Shown here piece after piece: positions 50,185 to 63,030 of a stretch of DNA of 64,000 bases. Origin of the DNA: an uncultured Nitrospiraceae bacterium (GTDB taxonomy: Bacteria; Nitrospirota; Thermodesulfovibrionia; Thermodesulfovibrionales; Dissulfurispiraceae); contig CAVPIW010000012.1 of NCBI GenBank assembly GCA_963705105.1, positions 128,001-192,000 of the forward strand. The letters are read 5' to 3'. The position numbers and the translations under genes are program-made. The notes beneath the pieces were generated by a model. It was not told the origin of the DNA. It saw only the letters and a list, made by a program, of their open reading frames with translations, and did not search any database. The first letter of the stretch is position 1. Each line of letters starts with the position of its first letter.

Positions 50185-50431
50185 CCTTATTGTTGCAGTA
50201 GGATTTCCGGAAAGGCGGGGTGTGGGCGCCGAAAACCCTGCTGCGGCGACACCTTTGCCTTCCCATGAAGACGTTTTCAGGCAAAGGGCTGAAAAAAGTG
50301 ACCCTTTTACGGACACTCACACTGACACTGTTTTTCAGAGCGTTTCGCCCCGCCTTTTCATGCAACAGAAAGATTAACCTTGCCGTTGCATAAGCCCCGC
50401 CTTTCCCGGGAGTGTGTTGCAACGATAAGGT
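50183..50431 (+). repeat. MITE-like repeat, copy E (full length 50183-50366) plus an inverted 5'-end fragment (50394-50431)
   Basis: Imperfect TIRs GTTGCA..AAAGGCGGGG / CCCCGCCTTT..TGCAAC. Confidence 0.88.
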
Positions 50432-50475
50432 AAACAATCATGCTCGCTGCAAAATATTTGGACAGGGGTGAAACT

Positions 50476-53049: not shown

Positions 53050-53193
53050 GTTGTCCTCCCTATTAAAGAATTCGCAAGCCTCGCCCCTTTCACGCCGATG
53101 CATCCGGGTTTCGGTCTTCCTGGCGCTGTGCATCGGCGCAGGCGGGAACTTCCGGTCTCTCTCCAGAGCATCCCTCAGAATATCACATTCACA

Positions 53194-53379
53194 TTATCGC
53201 TGCAATACACTCCCGGGAAAGGCGGGGCTGGGGTGAATGCGCCGAAAACCCTGCTGCGGCGACACCTTTGCCTTCCCATGAAGACGTTTTCAGGCAAAAG
53301 GCTGAAAAAGGTGACCCTTTTACGGACACTCACAATGACACTGTTTTTCAGAGCGCTTCGCCCCGCCTTTCCATGCAAC
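53194..53379 (+). repeat. MITE-like repeat, copy F
   Basis: Near-identical to copies E and G. Confidence 0.88.
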
Positions 53380-53554
53380 AGGAAGGTTCAGTAACGCGGA
53401 GGTGGTTGAGTTCTCGCAAAGAAACAAGGAGTTCGTCCCAGTCTTGACCGTCATGTCGATGCCGGGCTTCCTGCGGTTTTCAGGGTACAGGGTTGGAGAA
53501 GAATGACTCTTATATGGTACATTTAAAGAAAGTGACAATTGGGAAGGGAGCATT

Positions 53555-53908: not shown

Positions 53909-53916
53909 GAGGTGTG

Positions 53917-54177
53917 ATGGGAGATCAGAACAAGAGAGTCAGGGTTTACGGTCTTACAACGTGCCCGTCCTGCAAGAGGGTGAAAAAATACCTCGAAGAG
54001 CAGGGCGTCCAGTTCGAATACATCGAAGTCGATGCCCTTGACAGCGGCGAGCAGTGGCTCAAGACAAAGGAGCTGAAGCAATACAATCCGCAGGGCACCT
54101 ACCCGACCGTCATTGTCGAGGATGTCATCCTCGGCCTTGATGAGGCAGGACTGAAAAAGGCCCTGAACCTGTCATGA
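53917..54177 (+). CDS. Glutaredoxin/NrdH-like protein
   Basis: CPSC active site; TYPT cis-Pro motif. Confidence 0.9.
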   Translation: MGDQNKRVRVYGLTTCPSCKRVKKYLEEQGVQFEYIEVDALDSGEQWLKTKELKQYNPQGTYPTVIVEDVILGLDEAGLKKALNLS

Positions 54178-54503
54178 CACCGGAAAGGCTTTTTGAAGTC
54201 CTGACGAAATACGCCCAATCCAAGGGCACGGAGCTGAACGCCGACAAGGAGTTTGTGATGGAGATCCTCATGGGTCTTCTGAAGAATGAAGAGCGGTACG
54301 GCTACCGGTCCTGTCCCTGCCGTCTCGCAACGGGGTTGAAAGAAAAGGATGCCGACATCATCTGTCCCTGTGCATACAAGGATGCCGATGTGGCGGAGTA
54401 TGGCAGCTGCTACTGCGCGCTCTATGTATCAAAGGAATGGAATGCCGGCTCGGTCGAGCACGTTTTCGTGCCCGAGAGAAGACCGCTGGATAAAATGAAG
54501 TGA
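54174..54503 (+). CDS. Ferredoxin-thioredoxin reductase catalytic subunit
   Basis: YGYRSCPCR, ICPC, CYCALY. Confidence 0.92.
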   Translation: MTPERLFEVLTKYAQSKGTELNADKEFVMEILMGLLKNEERYGYRSCPCRLATGLKEKDADIICPCAYKDADVAEYGSCYCALYVSKEWNAGSVEHVFVPERRPLDKMK

Positions 54504-54975: not shown

Positions 54976-56109
54976 ATGATGGTTCACAGCCTCTACATCC
55001 ATATCCCCTTCTGCCTCAGGAAATGCCCCTACTGTGACTTCTGCTCCGTCCCCTATGACGAAGAACCGGCCCGCCGCACCATCGCAGCCGTCATGCGTGA
55101 ACTGGAAATGCGGAGCCGCGACGCCTGCGAGCTTTCGACGGTCTACATCGGCGGCGGCACGCCGACGATCGTCCCGGCCTCTGAACTGATCAGACTCATA
55201 GGCTCGGTCAGGGACTATTACCGCGTCGCGCCTGATGCCGAAATTACTGTCGAAGCGAACCCGGGCACCGTAACGAATGATTCCGTCAGGGCCCTTGCCG
55301 GTGCCGGCATCAACCGGTTCAGCCTCGGTGTCCAGTCCTTCGACGACGGTGAACTGAAAGCACTCGGGAGAATATACGGCTCCGGTGATGTCCTGAGCGC
55401 TGTCGACGCCGTGCGAGGCGCGGGAATCCGGAACCTGAGCCTCGACCTCATGTACGGCATCCCGGGGCAGACCCGGGATGCCTGGTCCGCCCATATCTGC
55501 AAAGCGATCGGTCTTGGCCCGGAACACATCTCGACCTATGAGCTGACCGTCGAACCGGGTACCCCACTTGAAGTCGCCGTGTCAAAGGGCCGGACGGAGA
55601 AACCCGGCGACGACACGATCGTTGCCATGTACGAAGACGTCATCGACAGGCTGACCGCCGCCGGCTACCGTCATTATGAGATCTCCAACTTCGCCAAACC
55701 CGGTTTCGGGTGCCGTCACAACATCAACTACTGGAACAGGGGGGAATACATCGGCGCCGGCGCCGGCGCCCACAGTTTCATCAACGGCAGGAGGATCAGG
55801 AACTTCTCGCGCATCGATCGATACAACGAAGCCCTGGAGCATGGGCGTTTACCTGTCGAAGAGGAGACGGAGACGGGGCGAGTCGATGCGATCAAGGAGT
55901 TTATCATGCTCGGTTTGAGGAAGACGGGGGGTGTGGATCTGAGACTGTGCAGAGCGGAATTCGGCTTTGATCTGGCCGGGTCCTGCGCCACGATGATCGG
56001 CCAGGGGCTGATGACGACAGGGGACGGCTTCATCAGGCTCACCAGGAAAGGGATCATTCTTTCAAACAGCGTCATCGCCGAGCTTTTCCGGGCAGCAGAG
56101 AAAACGTAG
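54976..56109 (+). CDS. hemW: Radical SAM heme chaperone HemW (HemN-like)
   Basis: LYIHIPFCLRKCPYCDF, GGGTP, HYEISNF, HNINYW. Confidence 0.9.
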   Translation: MMVHSLYIHIPFCLRKCPYCDFCSVPYDEEPARRTIAAVMRELEMRSRDACELSTVYIGGGTPTIVPASELIRLIGSVRDYYRVAPDAEITVEANPGTVTNDSVRALAGAGINRFSLGVQSFDDGELKALGRIYGSGDVLSAVDAVRGAGIRNLSLDLMYGIPGQTRDAWSAHICKAIGLGPEHISTYELTVEPGTPLEVAVSKGRTEKPGDDTIVAMYEDVIDRLTAAGYRHYEISNFAKPGFGCRHNINYWNRGEYIGAGAGAHSFINGRRIRNFSRIDRYNEALEHGRLPVEEETETGRVDAIKEFIMLGLRKTGGVDLRLCRAEFGFDLAGSCATMIGQGLMTTGDGFIRLTRKGIILSNSVIAELFRAAEKT

Positions 56110-56395
56110 CCCGTCCCGCAAAACGAAAAACGATACTCAAGACAGTCTCACGCAAAGCCGCAAAGAGCGCAAAGAAAGACAAGACAGTGTGAGTGTCAGT
56201 GTCTGTGAGCGGATCGTCGAATGCCGACAAACGATCACCCTTTGCCGTGTGGACAGACGACAAATGACCGTCAGGCAACAGGCGCTTAACACCTTGAGAA
56301 GTCTCATCATCGCATTGGAAAGGCTTTGAACCATGTTGCCTTCCCGCCGGCAGCTTCGCTGTGAGATGGCAAGAGGGTCTCCGACTGACGGCTGT

Positions 56396-57994
56396 TTATT
56401 TCTTGGCAGTTTTTATGTCCATCCAGCAGAAGGGGTCACGCTCCGCGAAGATATCCAACCCATAACTGTACGAGACGGCGAGGCATCCTCCGCAGGCGGC
56501 CCTGACGGGGCAGCCGCTGCAGGCGGCGCATCCGTCCCGGTAGCGCCGGGCCTCCGGAGAATCGAATATTTCAAGCAGGCTTTGTTCATAGATGTTGCCG
56601 ATCAAGGAGGGCAGCTTCCTGCAGGCGTGGACCTCTCCGTCGGCGAGGACGGCAACGAAATTGAAAGCCGCGCCGCACCCGTAGCCGGTGCAGCCGCCGA
56701 ACAGCTCCAGGTCGTCGTTATATCGCAGAATATTGATGAGATTGTCCTTGAACTCGATCACGGGATTTTCCTGGGCGGCCATAACGAACTCGTCGAGGAA
56801 CGCCCTGTACTCTTCCGGATCAGGGAGCTGCAGGTTCGCCCCCTCGCCCACCATGGACAGGCGGTTGAAGAGGAACGAGTCCGCCTTCCCTCTCAGCATC
56901 TCTGCAAGGGGTATGATCTCATGCATGTTGTCCCGCGTCAGGGTGAGCATGACCCGTGAGCGGACGCCCAGGTCACGCAGGAGGGCGAGGAATACCTCCA
57001 TCCGCGCAAAATGGCCTTTGCCGCGCATGTAATCGTTGTGTTCGGGCAGACCTTCCAGACTGACCTGGTAGAAGGAAGGGTGCTGAATGGCGATCAGTTT
57101 CTCCATCTGACGCCGTGTGGCAGGATTGCCGAGAATGGCCGTCAGAAAGCCGCGGTCGGCGGCTGCACGGTAGATGTCGTAGAACCGGGGGTGGAGAAAT
57201 GGATTGCCGCCCGTAAAAGACACGGCGCCGGTGACGCTCTTTTTTCCCGCAAAGAGCCTGAGGTCATCGAGCACGCCTATGGCCTGCTCCAGCGTCGGCT
57301 TTTGGCGGTCGCTGCGGTCGTAGCAATGCCTGCACCTCAGGTCACAGGCCTGCGTGATGTGCCACTGCAGGGTGAAGACATCCGTGCAGAGGAGGGCGTC
57401 GTCAACGGGATGACCAGGGGCGAGGATCCGCGGGTCACGCCTGATCAGTGGGGGAGGCGTGAGGAGGATGCCGGCGGAGACGGCATCGTCGATGACCCTG
57501 TCGATGATCCTCGGGGGAAGGCCTTCGGCCCGGGCGACGTCGGCCGGGTCGAGACCTTCGGCGACGATCTTGAGGGCAAGGAGGTCCCTGTCAGAAGCGG
57601 GTCTCATGCGGGCCTCACCGGTCCCTGCGTTTTTCCACAGGAGGACCAGTTCCTCTCCACGCACGGGGACCTCCCCTTTACCTTTCATCATGACAAAATC
57701 GGCGAGGCCGCGCCACGACAAGGGGAGCAGACGGAGACTCGGATTGACCGTCATCCCGTCGACGGCGACGTGTATCTCGGCATGTTGGAGAGCTTTAAGA
57801 TGAAATTCGAGGCGTGAAAGGTCCGCCAGGAATCCGGGCAATGCGACGTCGACCCGCCGGGCCAGTATCTCCCGGAACTCGTCGGGATCTAACGCCTGAG
57901 AATGTCCGCCGAAAAGCTGCTCCCAGAGATCAGGGCCTATGACGGTGCGGCAGACAGGGAATGAATCGTCGGGCTGCAGGTTATCCATTGTCAT
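56396..57994 (-). CDS. sbtM: Radical SAM/SPASM peptide maturase, selenobiotic (SbtM-like) family
   Basis: LQWHITQACDLRCRHCY; SPASM GCTGYGCGAA..HACRK..CSGC..CGGC..DPFC; long N-terminal extension; precursor directly upstream. Confidence 0.88.
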   Translation of the reverse strand: MTMDNLQPDDSFPVCRTVIGPDLWEQLFGGHSQALDPDEFREILARRVDVALPGFLADLSRLEFHLKALQHAEIHVAVDGMTVNPSLRLLPLSWRGLADFVMMKGKGEVPVRGEELVLLWKNAGTGEARMRPASDRDLLALKIVAEGLDPADVARAEGLPPRIIDRVIDDAVSAGILLTPPPLIRRDPRILAPGHPVDDALLCTDVFTLQWHITQACDLRCRHCYDRSDRQKPTLEQAIGVLDDLRLFAGKKSVTGAVSFTGGNPFLHPRFYDIYRAAADRGFLTAILGNPATRRQMEKLIAIQHPSFYQVSLEGLPEHNDYMRGKGHFARMEVFLALLRDLGVRSRVMLTLTRDNMHEIIPLAEMLRGKADSFLFNRLSMVGEGANLQLPDPEEYRAFLDEFVMAAQENPVIEFKDNLINILRYNDDLELFGGCTGYGCGAAFNFVAVLADGEVHACRKLPSLIGNIYEQSLLEIFDSPEARRYRDGCAACSGCPVRAACGGCLAVSYSYGLDIFAERDPFCWMDIKTAKK

Positions 57995-58008
57995 ATAGAA
58001 CGGGAAGA

Positions 58009-58029
58009 GGCCCGTTCAGGGAACGGGCC
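58009..58029 (-). terminator. GC-rich hairpin between precursor and maturase
   Basis: GGCCCGTTC-3 nt-GAACGGGCC followed by a weak pyrimidine tail. Confidence 0.5.
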
Positions 58030-58077
58030 CCGGGTGTGTATCAGTCTGGCGAGTGCGAACCGCACTCGGCTGTCATC

Positions 58078-58380
58078 CTATCAACTGCTCTTCGGTGTCT
58101 TTTCCTCCGCAGAACCGGTCGACTTCTTCTCTTCATCGGACTTACCGGGCTGCGCAGGCTTCTTGTCCTTCTCTTTTTCTTCGGTGCTCCCGGCACCCTG
58201 CTGGGAGCCGCCTCAACCGGATTGAGCGGGCTTTTTCTCAGTGCCGCCGGCACTGGGCTGTCCGCTGCCTCAGCCGCTCTGGCTGGCAGCGTAGCTGTCC
58301 GTCGGGCCGAGGTTCGCACCGGCAATCAGGCTCGCGATTCCGACACCTGCAAGGATCTTCATCAGATCGCTCTTGTCCAT
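58078..58380 (-). CDS. sbtA: SbtA-like RiPP precursor with three in-frame UGA (Sec) codons, 100 aa
   Basis: GGAGGTG RBS; leader MDKSDLMKILAGVGIASLIAG; TGA at codons 37, 56 and 100, then TAG; a hairpin after each TGA. Confidence 0.85.
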
Positions 58381-58586
58381 TGTTCACCTCCCTTGCTCAG
58401 AATTGAAATGCTCCGCCTGTGCCGAAGGCACGGCGCTCCGTCTTCCCTGATGATCGGCCGGTATGGGAGAAAAAGGTCGACTTTCCAGATGATGGAATGT
58501 GATACCCCATATTAATGCCGGCCCGATCCCGGCGACTTGTCTCTATAGTACAGGAACCGTGATGAAAATTTCCCATTCACAATCCC

Positions 58587-59072
58587 TCATCCCTCGACGA
58601 TGCCGCGCTCTTCCCACATAAACCAGTTTCCACTATCGTAGAGATAGGAGTACGTGTTCTGAAAGATGGCGAAATGCTCCTCTTCGTCCTTGACGAGGCA
58701 TTCGAAAAAGGCCCTTTCAGTCGGAGAGGAGGCCGCGGCAAGGGCCGTCCTGTAAAAGTCGATCGCTTCTTTCTCCATCGTCATGGCGGTCTCGAGTGCG
58801 GAGATTTCGTCGGCCGTCGAAGCGACCTGTTGCAGCATCGTTTCTTTGTGCTGCTCAAATATCTCCTTCATGTCCTCCAGTGGTGTCGCATCGGAGGGTT
58901 TGAATTCGCCTCCCCGCGAGACCTGGATCGCGCACTCCTTGTGGTATTGCTCATCTTCAGCGATACTGAGAAACATCTTTTTCCCGACGGGGTTGCTCGT
59001 CTTCTCCGCGCATTTCCTGTAAAAATCGATTGCCTCCTGCTCCATCTTCATTGCCATTTCAACAGTGTCCAT
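58587..59072 (-). CDS. Rubrerythrin/ferritin-like diiron protein
   Basis: Two E..A..FY / E..H helical pairs (EDEQYH, KDEEEH). Confidence 0.9.
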   Translation of the reverse strand: MDTVEMAMKMEQEAIDFYRKCAEKTSNPVGKKMFLSIAEDEQYHKECAIQVSRGGEFKPSDATPLEDMKEIFEQHKETMLQQVASTADEISALETAMTMEKEAIDFYRTALAAASSPTERAFFECLVKDEEEHFAIFQNTYSYLYDSGNWFMWEERGIVEG

Positions 59073-59449
59073 CGCTTTTCCTCCCAGATAAAGCGTTTTC
59101 ACGCACCAAACTCGGTTGCCGTCCTGACCGAATCGCCGGCGTCCAAAATAATCTGACACGACGATAGGGCATGATTTCTTTGCAAAATGTACCACCTTTG
59201 CGCTTGTGCATGCCTTGTTATGAAGATACAGGGTATCGCACGTTCACCTGTGCGGCTCCCCGACCGCTTCCGCCTCCGACTCCCGCCGCCGTGAAGATTA
59301 CCAGTGAAATCTTCTTCAGAAACCAAACTCCATCCTCGCTTTCAAGGTTTTGCCGTCAGCAATTCCGGACGCCGGCATGACCGGATATAGGTCTTCTTTC
59401 CAGCGCCACCATGTATAATTATACAGAATGCGAGGCGACAGGAGGTATC

Positions 59450-62279: not shown

Positions 62280-62612
62280 TCACCGCTTCTTCAGGTAATC
62301 GCCAAGCAATCCCCTGCTGTGCTCGTCGTCGTGGCAATAGACGCAGAGGTTCTCCCAGTTGGAGCCGTCGGGGGGGTTGTTGTGATGGTTCCCGTCCCTG
62401 TGATGGACCGTCAGCAGGCGCCGGTCCTTCTCCTCGAACTCCCTGCCGCACTTGGCGCAGATGAGGCCGTGTATGCGGAGTGACTGCTCCCTGTAGTCAC
62501 CCGACCGCTGGCCCGCCTCCTTCAGTTCCTTCACGATTTCTTCCACGGACTTGCCGCTGTCCTTCTTCGGGGACGTCTTCATCCTGAAATCTTTCCGACC
62601 GTATTTTCTCAT
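62280..62612 (-). CDS. yajD: YajD-family HNH nuclease
   Basis: YREQSL..CAKCGREF..LTVHHRDGNHHNNPPDGSNWENLCVYCHDDEH. Confidence 0.9.
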   Translation of the reverse strand: MRKYGRKDFRMKTSPKKDSGKSVEEIVKELKEAGQRSGDYREQSLRIHGLICAKCGREFEEKDRRLLTVHHRDGNHHNNPPDGSNWENLCVYCHDDEHSRGLLGDYLKKR

Positions 62613-62666
62613 TATGGATTCTCCCCTTTCCTCTCAGAATGCAGAACAGACAAACATATAATATTA

Positions 62667-62855
62667 AACCTTATCGTTGCAATACACTTCCGGGAAAGGC
62701 GGGGCGTATGCGCCGAAAACCTTGATGCGGCCACACCTTTGCCTTCCCATGAAGACGTTTTCAGGCAAACGGCTGAAAAAGGTGACCCTTTTACGGACAC
62801 TCACACTGACACTGACACTGTTTTCAGCGCGTTTCGCCACGCCTTTCCATGCAAC
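62667..62855 (+). repeat. MITE-like repeat, copy G
   Basis: Near-identical to E and F, with more hexamer units. Confidence 0.88.
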
Positions 62856-63030
62856 TACAATGTAAAGTGTACCCGATAATCGCCGGAGATTCAAAAGCAC
62901 ATCCCTGCTGAGCGATGCCGGGGCCTCACATCAATGGGGGAGGCTCCGTGTGGCGGACATCACGAGGCATCACGTTGAGGGTACCAGTGAATTGTTGCTT
63001 CAGAAAAGAGCTATGAGCTAAGGGCGGTGC

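Follow-up and report, generated by a model that had tools for sequence, protein, structure and literature searches.

We describe here a selenocysteine-containing RiPP precursor, SbtA, and its maturase, SbtM, encoded within a 64,000-nucleotide stretch of DNA from an uncultured Nitrospiraceae bacterium (the window), and propose a rereading of the pair that extends to their whole family. On balance we favor a model in which SbtA is modified in the cytoplasm and exported as a poly-selenooxazole protein that may well bind soft metals, with the system as a whole forming an O2-independent selenium counterpart of the MNIO-PME1 pathway. The sbtA gene is mis-called and is otherwise an ordinary member of a curated family. 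Two family-wide properties underlie the model, a probable export signal in the SbtA leader and a PME1 module in SbtM. In the literature searched, to which the primary family papers (Lewis et al. 2021; Haft & Basu 2011) do not belong, we found no description of either, SbtA not being linked to a signal peptide nor SbtM to DUF2063/PME1. The combination of export signal and PME1 module offers a testable rereading of the whole family.

The sbtA gene occupies positions 58380-58078 on the minus strand and encodes a thio(seleno)oxazole precursor of 100 residues with three selenocysteines (Sec) and a TAG stop. This is exactly the frame proposed in the first-pass annotation, with TGA at codons 37 (58272), 56 (58215), and 100 (58083), and a strong RBS lies just upstream (58394-58385, minus strand). 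UGA 1 (58270..58272) corresponds to Sec37 in the context SQSG-U-GSG, UGA 2 (58213..58215) to Sec56 in AQSG-U-GGS, and UGA 3 to a putative C-terminal Sec100 in KSS-U with the UAG stop immediately after it (58078..58083), and a charged low-complexity linker with 18 charged residues of 43 spans residues 57-99 (58084..58212). The product scores 30.7-32 bits against TIGR04081 (cut-off 30.5), and sbtM, located downstream (56396..57994, minus strand) and coding for a 532-residue radical SAM/SPASM enzyme with CxxxCxxC at 217-224, scores 698.6 bits against TIGR04082 (cut-off 350), so the SbtA/SbtM assignment made from the sequence alone is upheld by both profiles. The genome has selA, selB, selD, and tRNA-Sec (selC), as the selenoprotein reading demands, and its selD contains a TGA. 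It also has a second sbtA (G000:C17:58033-57794, minus strand), which is of the lipoprotein type (LYGC), has three UGAs with hairpins, the third of them beyond the stop, and lies upstream of a second sbtM. With a leader above cut-off, SGUG-type cores, a SECIS for each UGA, an adjacent SbtM, and a Sec-using host, the window pair is a member of the SbtA/SbtM ('selenobiotic') family.

Within this family the window copy is unexceptional. In a phylum sample of 301 genomes, whose counts ignore kinship so that relatives are not independent, sbtM is present in 38, and 37 of these 38 have selA, compared with 154 of the 301 overall. The set assembled here has 114 sbtM loci, drawn from the best 80 of 177 and from further searches, with precursors in 105 and no precursor match at nine; the 115 precursors reduce to 105 distinct sequences and to 104 after removal of one with an N gap, and where translation ran on beyond a genuine TGA stop it was cut back by an ad hoc rule. 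Nine of the 104 have no Sec, 11 have one, 42 have two, 34 have three, seven have four, and one has five; at least three Sec are therefore found in 42 of 104, and seven end in Sec. The nine all-Cys precursors have Cys at the same cores, which is the substitution expected of homologues if the TGA positions encode Sec. The first-pass annotation's description of a multi-core, tri-seleno precursor with a long charged linker is correct in that the three UGAs and the linker are real, but none of these is distinctive, and SbtA precursors commonly have three Sec, charged linkers, and a SECIS in the 3' UTR. Reviews put the number of Sec in SbtA at 'at least two' (PMC9204691) or two (PMC13188914), and the window copy departs from these counts in having three, the last of them C-terminal, which within the family is ordinary.

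The N-terminal part of SbtM, residues ~4-182 (57449..57985, minus strand), is by profiles and structure a DUF2063/HvfC/BufC-like (PME1) precursor-recognition module with an RRE, shorter at its N-terminus by ~45 residues than stand-alone PME1 proteins; the first-pass annotation identified the radical SAM/SPASM enzyme correctly and missed this module. The N-domain of the window SbtM alone is below HMM cut-offs, with no DUF2063/HvfC match in Pfam or NCBIfam, and a profile search with it against the sequences of solved structures returned nothing significant. However, among 71 homologues of the domain 13 match HvfC (NF050145) at E<=0.1, the best at 3.4e-6, and five match DUF2063, and the first Atlas match is an HvfC-family cluster (0.88), which we take as a lead only. 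The modelled domain (pLDDT 91) has as its best structural match NGO1945/3DEE (E 2.8e-6, Z 12.4, rmsd 3.5, 164 aligned), a protein named as PME1 (10.1101/2025.11.18.689057), followed by the TglHI partner chain (Z 10.9) and then RRE domains. The domain profile also retrieves stand-alone proteins of 220-260 residues; 20 of the 150 such matches listed were chosen by length and match position, and all 20 are above the DUF2063 cut-off. Alignment of the SbtM N-domain with the stand-alone profile by hhalign gives a probability of 100 and an E of 4.7e-44 over 186 columns. Named stand-alone relatives come from Myxococcus, Corallococcus, and a planctomycete, and in a quick tree these group with the SbtM domains (support 97) apart from the same-phylum MNIO partners (99), although the relatives were picked by similarity to SbtM, which makes the grouping partly circular and gives it no direction. 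These profile and structural comparisons show the N-terminal ~180 residues of SbtM to be a PME1 homologue fused to a radical SAM/SPASM core.

Modelling suggests what this module does. A predicted complex of SbtM 1-185 with leader residues 1-36 scores 0.63 against 0.02 for the best control, with contacts agreeing to at least 86% and a partner pLDDT of 70-73; the mark used is reached by 116 of 157 solved pairs and 2 of 215 mismatched pairs, and resemblance to solved RRE-leader structures may account for the pass. The predicted leader contacts, L10, I15, L18, and I19, make up its hydrophobic stretch, and it is likely that the PME1/RRE module of SbtM grips the leader. We note that PME-type 1 partners go with precursors bearing general-secretion signals, and have been speculated to mask the signal until modification is done (PMC12452194).

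The closest known parallels are bufferins, oxazolin, and captophorins, which are made by an MNIO (BufB/HvfB) with a PME1 partner (BufC/HvfC) and share the 5-thiooxazole ring chemistry (PMC11626156, PMC12452194, 10.1101/2025.11.18.689057). Bufferin-type systems resemble SbtA/SbtM in their DUF2063+RRE partner, in precursors of signal-peptide or lipoprotein type, as SbtA probably is, with repeated small-residue Cys cores in flexible chains, and in having no dedicated protease or exporter. In contrast, SbtM employs a radical SAM/SPASM catalyst instead of an O2-using MNIO and has the partner fused to the catalyst, SbtA has Sec for Cys and no EGKCG, DUF2282, or six-Cys pattern, and the system has no doxX. 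Searches of the sbtA product for Buf1 (DUF2282), Buf2 six-Cys, and EGKCG repeats found none of them, and the product has no Pfam match and only TIGR04081 in NCBIfam. Because no MNIO (DUF692, PF05114) is matched in the 99%-complete genome, SbtA/SbtM is not a member of the MNIO-PME1 class and only 'works like' it. MNIOs need O2 (10.1101/2025.11.18.689057), and bufferins are exported and need their rings for copper binding (PMC11626156). An MNIO occurs in 21 of the 301 sample genomes and overlaps with sbtM in one of 38, a partial match, and this exclusion tracks lineage and is not an independent observation. We take the named sbtM hosts to be mostly anaerobes, and the myxobacteria to be aerobes.

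One of the stand-alone PME1 relatives was traced to its surroundings, and all three loci (L125-L127; L125:1741-3705) have the order precursor-MNIO-PME1. At these Myxococcus-type loci, both MNIOs scanned score above the BufB bufferin-maturase cut-off, and each precursor is of the lipoprotein type, with GSCG/AGCG/HGCG cores, charged linkers, and a G-x-K-K end. The Myxococcus/Corallococcus cassettes (P0100, P0117) have the PME1 closest to the SbtM N-domain among those found and a precursor that resembles the lipoprotein-type SbtA, and they differ from SbtA/SbtM in being Cys only, MNIO-dependent, and equipped with a stand-alone partner. An HMM of the SbtA leader gives no significant score on Myxococcus-type or same-phylum MNIO precursors, and the likeness appears to be architectural; homology is not claimed. 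The Myxococcus-type lipoprotein precursor has no NCBIfam precursor-family match and has 43 homologues, and a plasmid search with the stand-alone PME1 relative gave weak partial matches only. As a tentative scenario, to which we would not yet commit, SbtA/SbtM could be an anaerobic, selenium-using branch of the bufferins/captophorins, in which a radical SAM/SPASM enzyme acquired a PME1 module and its exported multi-core precursor and Cys was then exchanged for Sec in sulfate-reducer-type bacteria. If so, two unrelated enzyme chemistries would share one recognition module and arrive at the same ring, one with the help of oxygen and the other without it.

We propose the following sequence of events. 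SelB would read each UGA as Sec by means of the hairpin 20-21 nt downstream, the last of these from the 3' UTR, to give a chain of 100 residues with Sec at its C-terminus. The PME1/RRE module fused to the SbtM core, for which homology is shown and binding predicted, would hold the hydrophobic leader in the cytoplasm and delay export, and the radical SAM/SPASM core would oxidise Gly/Ser-Sec to 5-selenooxazoles with a loss of 4 Da each, presumably in a processive manner. The chain would then exit by the general secretion pathway, with signal peptidase I removing residues ~1-31 of the window copy, and with lipoprotein-type copies being lipidated and cut by LspA. The product would be a flexible periplasmic chain of ~69 residues carrying three selenol-bearing oxazoles. 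In one family member SbtM abstracts hydrogen at the Cys/Sec beta-carbon to form a -4 Da thio(seleno)oxazole (PMC9204691), and by analogy a selenooxazole at Gly-Sec37 and Gly-Sec56 is highly probable. The SbtM product shares the ~305 nm 5-thiooxazole signature with copper-binding peptides, and its ring is of the 5-thiooxazole class seen in bufferin, oxazolin, and fontiphorin. According to PMC9204691, most clusters of this kind have yet to be assigned a final product or a function. Again by analogy, binding of soft metals such as Cu(I), Ag, or Hg by mature SbtA is a serious possibility, short of one that we would assert. Selenooxazoles would then be a new natural metal ligand, and periplasmic and lipid-anchored soft-metal sponges could bear on Cu, Ag, and Hg handling in sulfidic sediments. 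No copper gene or regulator was seen to mark the window locus, and over 80 loci the metal link of the neighbourhoods is inconsistent, with CusB/TolC-like heavy-metal efflux genes beside two related loci.

The role of the product could be a different one even if its biosynthesis and export are as proposed, and we consider it unlikely, though deserving of attention, that SbtA serves selenium/sulfur or redox physiology, as a selenium store or sink or a periplasmic thiol-type redox buffer, and not toxic-metal capture. The sole conserved operator found is a LysR-type two-box element, in which a conserved TTGAC promoter is overlapped by ATA.-N7-CTAT-N14..16-ATAG-N7-C.AT, and it is present in 11 of 101 upstream regions (L007, L019, L024, L032, L034, L040, L085, L096, L102, L122, and L124; shuffles gave a mean of 0.115 and a maximum of 2), including that of the C17 sbtA copy. 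All three LysRs that turned up in the genome are of a selenium-metabolism/YeiE-like kind, one of them next to selD, and because the operator is LysR-type and the LysRs are of this kind, an Se/S rather than a Cu role is indicated. Neighbours that include rubrerythrin-like, glutaredoxin, and MerA-like reductase genes point the same way, and sbtA RNA seen without sbtM RNA fits a bulk product weakly, missing sbtM cover in RNA contigs being no evidence of non-expression. However, the operator is absent from the window copy, and in an operator-based regulon search of the genome single boxes (n=26) occur at about the chance number and do not mark sel genes. Moreover, the all-Cys versions (9/104) imply that selenium is dispensable, and the SAM cost of aromatising Sec is hard to square with storage.

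Several features of these neighbourhoods are recorded here in their own right. A rubrerythrin/ferritin-like gene in Cys form lies directly upstream of sbtA (58587-59195, minus strand), and a glutaredoxin and ferredoxin:thioredoxin-reductase-like pair, also in Cys forms, is at 53914-54503 (plus strand). Genes for a MerA-like flavoprotein, DUF547, and VTT-domain proteins are beside sbtM in eight of 80 loci (L013, L015, L016, L019, L028, L034, L036, and L040). The selD gene and a selenium-metabolism LysR scoring above the NF040786 cut-off are transcribed convergently (G000:C11:79300-81435), and a second such LysR is on contig C6.

Export in the favored model rests on the leader. Residues 1-31 (58288..58380, minus strand) have the features of a dual leader and signal peptide, with a hydrophobic h-region and, at residues 29-32, the candidate signal peptidase I site S-Y-A|A of the non-lipoprotein type, where cleavage would be expected. 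The calls that follow derive from a PROSITE-style lipobox pattern and the -3/-1 rule. A hydrophobic 12-residue stretch is found in 102 of 104 precursors compared to 421 of 1647 control ORFs, and a lipobox in 56 of 104 (a few probably false) compared to 44 of 1647, with Cys at residue 29 in 37 precursors. Where G-[C/U] directly follows the h-region the residue is Cys in 48 of 48 cases, including 42 precursors using Sec elsewhere, whereas the later cores of lipobox precursors that use Sec have 124 Sec versus seven Cys. The chemistry of lipidation would demand Cys, and not Sec, at the lipobox position. Lipoprotein-type and non-lipoprotein precursors are paired at eight loci, or at nine by pattern if the doubtful L121 is counted; the host genome carries one sbtA of each type, and both LepB and LspA are present. 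A strict A-x-A rule is satisfied by 23 of 48 non-lipobox leaders versus 11 and 10 in downstream windows, a partial enrichment, and the n-region net charge of 0 in the window copy and in 33 of 104 precursors is a weak feature of the signal. The loose -3/-1 signal peptidase rule was set aside as uninformative (47 versus 42 and 38 of 48), and a prepilin-type leader was rejected by eye, there being no basic residue at -2 and no Glu at +5. We conclude that the SbtA leader is most likely a general-secretion signal, the pattern being strong for the lipobox at family level and weaker for the A-x-A site of the window copy.

The first-pass annotation observed that no protease or transporter is adjacent, which profile scans of the window bear out, and regarded processing as unexplained. 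If the leader is an export signal, as is most likely, the absence is accounted for by housekeeping export, and it is fairly likely, judging from these sequence features, that general secretion and housekeeping cleavage suffice with no dedicated protease or exporter needed. We consider it doubtful that SbtA is instead a classical multi-core RiPP (a 'selenobacteriocin'), whose leader is only an enzyme handle and whose cores are released by distant proteases as short selenooxazole antibiotic or signal peptides. The repeated S-G-U-G cores suggest such a design, as does the binding of leaders by the RRE fold in ordinary RiPPs, and PMC13188914 enters the family under the name 'Selenobacteriocin'. 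Nevertheless, no recurring protease, exporter, or immunity gene was found around 80 loci, where the scan covered 134 of the 303 cluster representatives, and no genuine cluster is conserved in more than five of the 80, antisense frames over sbtA and sbtM having been set aside. The linkers have no conserved cut site and core spacing tracks the SECIS elements, as described below, and an invariant lipobox Cys, present in about half of the family, implies that these members are anchored in the membrane. The multi-core reading, in which a protease would release several small cores, is therefore less probable than a single small protein that is exported.

As the first-pass annotation claimed, each TGA has its own hairpin; the first begins at 58255, the second at 58197, and the third at 58068, and their loops lie 21, 20, and 20 nt, respectively, beyond the TGA. 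SECIS 1 (58239..58255, minus strand) has a 7-bp stem and a GGC loop and encodes PSAGGT, SECIS 2 (58183..58197, minus strand) has a 5-bp stem and a CGGGA loop and encodes GAGST, and SECIS 3 (58050..58068, minus strand) is in the 3' UTR, wholly beyond the TAG, with an 8-bp stem, a GTT loop, and no U-tract behind it. All three contain GTGC-N5-GCAC and have G at loop position 1-2, and all three fit the bSECIS model (loop of 3-9 nt, G at position 1-2, stem of 4-16 bp, 16-37 nt after the UGA; PMC13188914), as does the selD of the host genome. Applied to 1581 genuine TGA stops of long ORFs in the genome, the hairpin rule fires after 185, and at 17-22 nt after 51, and synonymous recoding of the 54 nt that follow TGA1 and TGA2 produced an equally good hairpin in six and seven of 1000 trials, respectively. 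Folding z-scores for the 48 nt after each TGA (-1.05, -2.86, and -1.53) are modest and are not used as support, and the minimum-energy fold of the TGA2 region is a competing hairpin. Across the precursor set hairpins follow 182 of 235 core TGAs and none of 12 other TGAs, the remaining 53 core TGAs being without a hairpin by the rule used. From this pattern we have little doubt that UGA 37 and UGA 56 are decoded as Sec. Stem-pair counts (113 of 127 distinct hairpins, several pair types) were not taken as covariation, because the stems are paired by construction.

The hairpins also appear to shape the protein. An A-G-S/G-type linker motif follows 93 of 147 Sec versus none of 45 Cys, and the core spacing has a median of 20 residues from U to U and seven from C to C. 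Because the motif follows Sec and not Cys and the spacings differ in this way, we read the A-G-S/G-T linker motif as the protein footprint of the SECIS, and the repeat structure as largely imposed by the RNA. Two UGAs lie 3-5 codons apart in precursors of five loci (L036, L048, L095, L098, and L122; SSUSSU, SGUGQSGU), and at L095 a single hairpin is 33 and 18 nt from the two, such that one SECIS may serve both codons.

The third UGA merits separate consideration. A hairpin accompanies the last Sec of the precursor in 87 of 95 relatives, with its loop beyond the stop in 76, so the earlier proposal of a C-terminal Sec served by a 3'-UTR hairpin describes a layout common in the family, and decoding of UGA 100 as Sec is very likely by comparison with these relatives. 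A product with two Sec, in which UGA 3 is the true stop of a tandem UGA-UAG and hairpin 3 a relic or an RNA stabiliser, is improbable. Tandem stops are common, a terminal Ser-Sec has no precedent shown as an SbtM substrate, and the base at 58070, beside hairpin 3, differs in one RNA run. However, hairpin 3 has the family signature at the same 20-nt distance and no U-tract, the last core lines up with the S-S-U-S-G/S-G-U-S endings of family members, and the S-U-stop ending recurs in six other precursors, each with its own hairpin sequence.

That sbtA is a pseudogene or a sequencing artefact, with the TGAs as nonsense changes and only a 36-residue peptide made, would agree with standard translation ending at codon 37 and with a TIGR04081 score barely above cut-off, but this is largely refuted by the agreement of four public runs on the TGAs, the exact hairpin geometry at all three, the intact Sec machinery, and a paralogue of the same design. 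In the contigs of two DNA and two RNA runs, from four studies, there is no alternative letter at any of the TGAs or at the TAG. Of three coding variants in sbtA across the runs two are synonymous and one is K>N. The RNA contigs of two runs cover sbtA, at 58038-58528 and 58071-58521. That they start at 58528 and 58521, whereas DNA contigs extend further, is a weak hint of a 5' transcribed leader that includes the RBS (58381..58528, minus strand). Their ends at 58038 and 58071 fall short of an 11-bp GC-rich hairpin between sbtA and sbtM that is a candidate terminator/attenuator or RNA stabiliser by its fold (58007..58031, minus strand), a weak hint that the sbtA transcript is short and ends before this hairpin. 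A terminator scan did not pick the hairpin, and a promoter scan gave no sigma-70 promoter. The window sbtA has a candidate -10 element, TACTAT (58550-58545), and immediately upstream of it an imperfect palindrome, GTGA-N14-TCAC (58580-58559, minus strand), which is a possible operator.

Elsewhere in the genome, tRNA arrays on contigs C3 (five genes) and C4 (23 genes, C4:10181-12340) duplicate the dispersed tRNA set, and C3 has a GC content of 67% and is possibly foreign or contaminating DNA. A 96-nt tRNA called as Cys(GCA) by ARAGORN is tRNA-Sec-like and lies directly downstream of a rhodanese-like gene that has an ATAG-N7-CTAT box upstream (G000:C10:176596-177706); it presumably resembles the selC*-type tRNAs of deltaproteobacteria. 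Lastly, a repeated non-coding element occurs in the window at ~50200-50450, 53170-53480, 56100-56350, and 62600-62900, with further copies upstream of both selD and the C17 sbtM; similar short frames recur among the ORFs, and the summed contig depth exceeds 1500 at 56300-56380.
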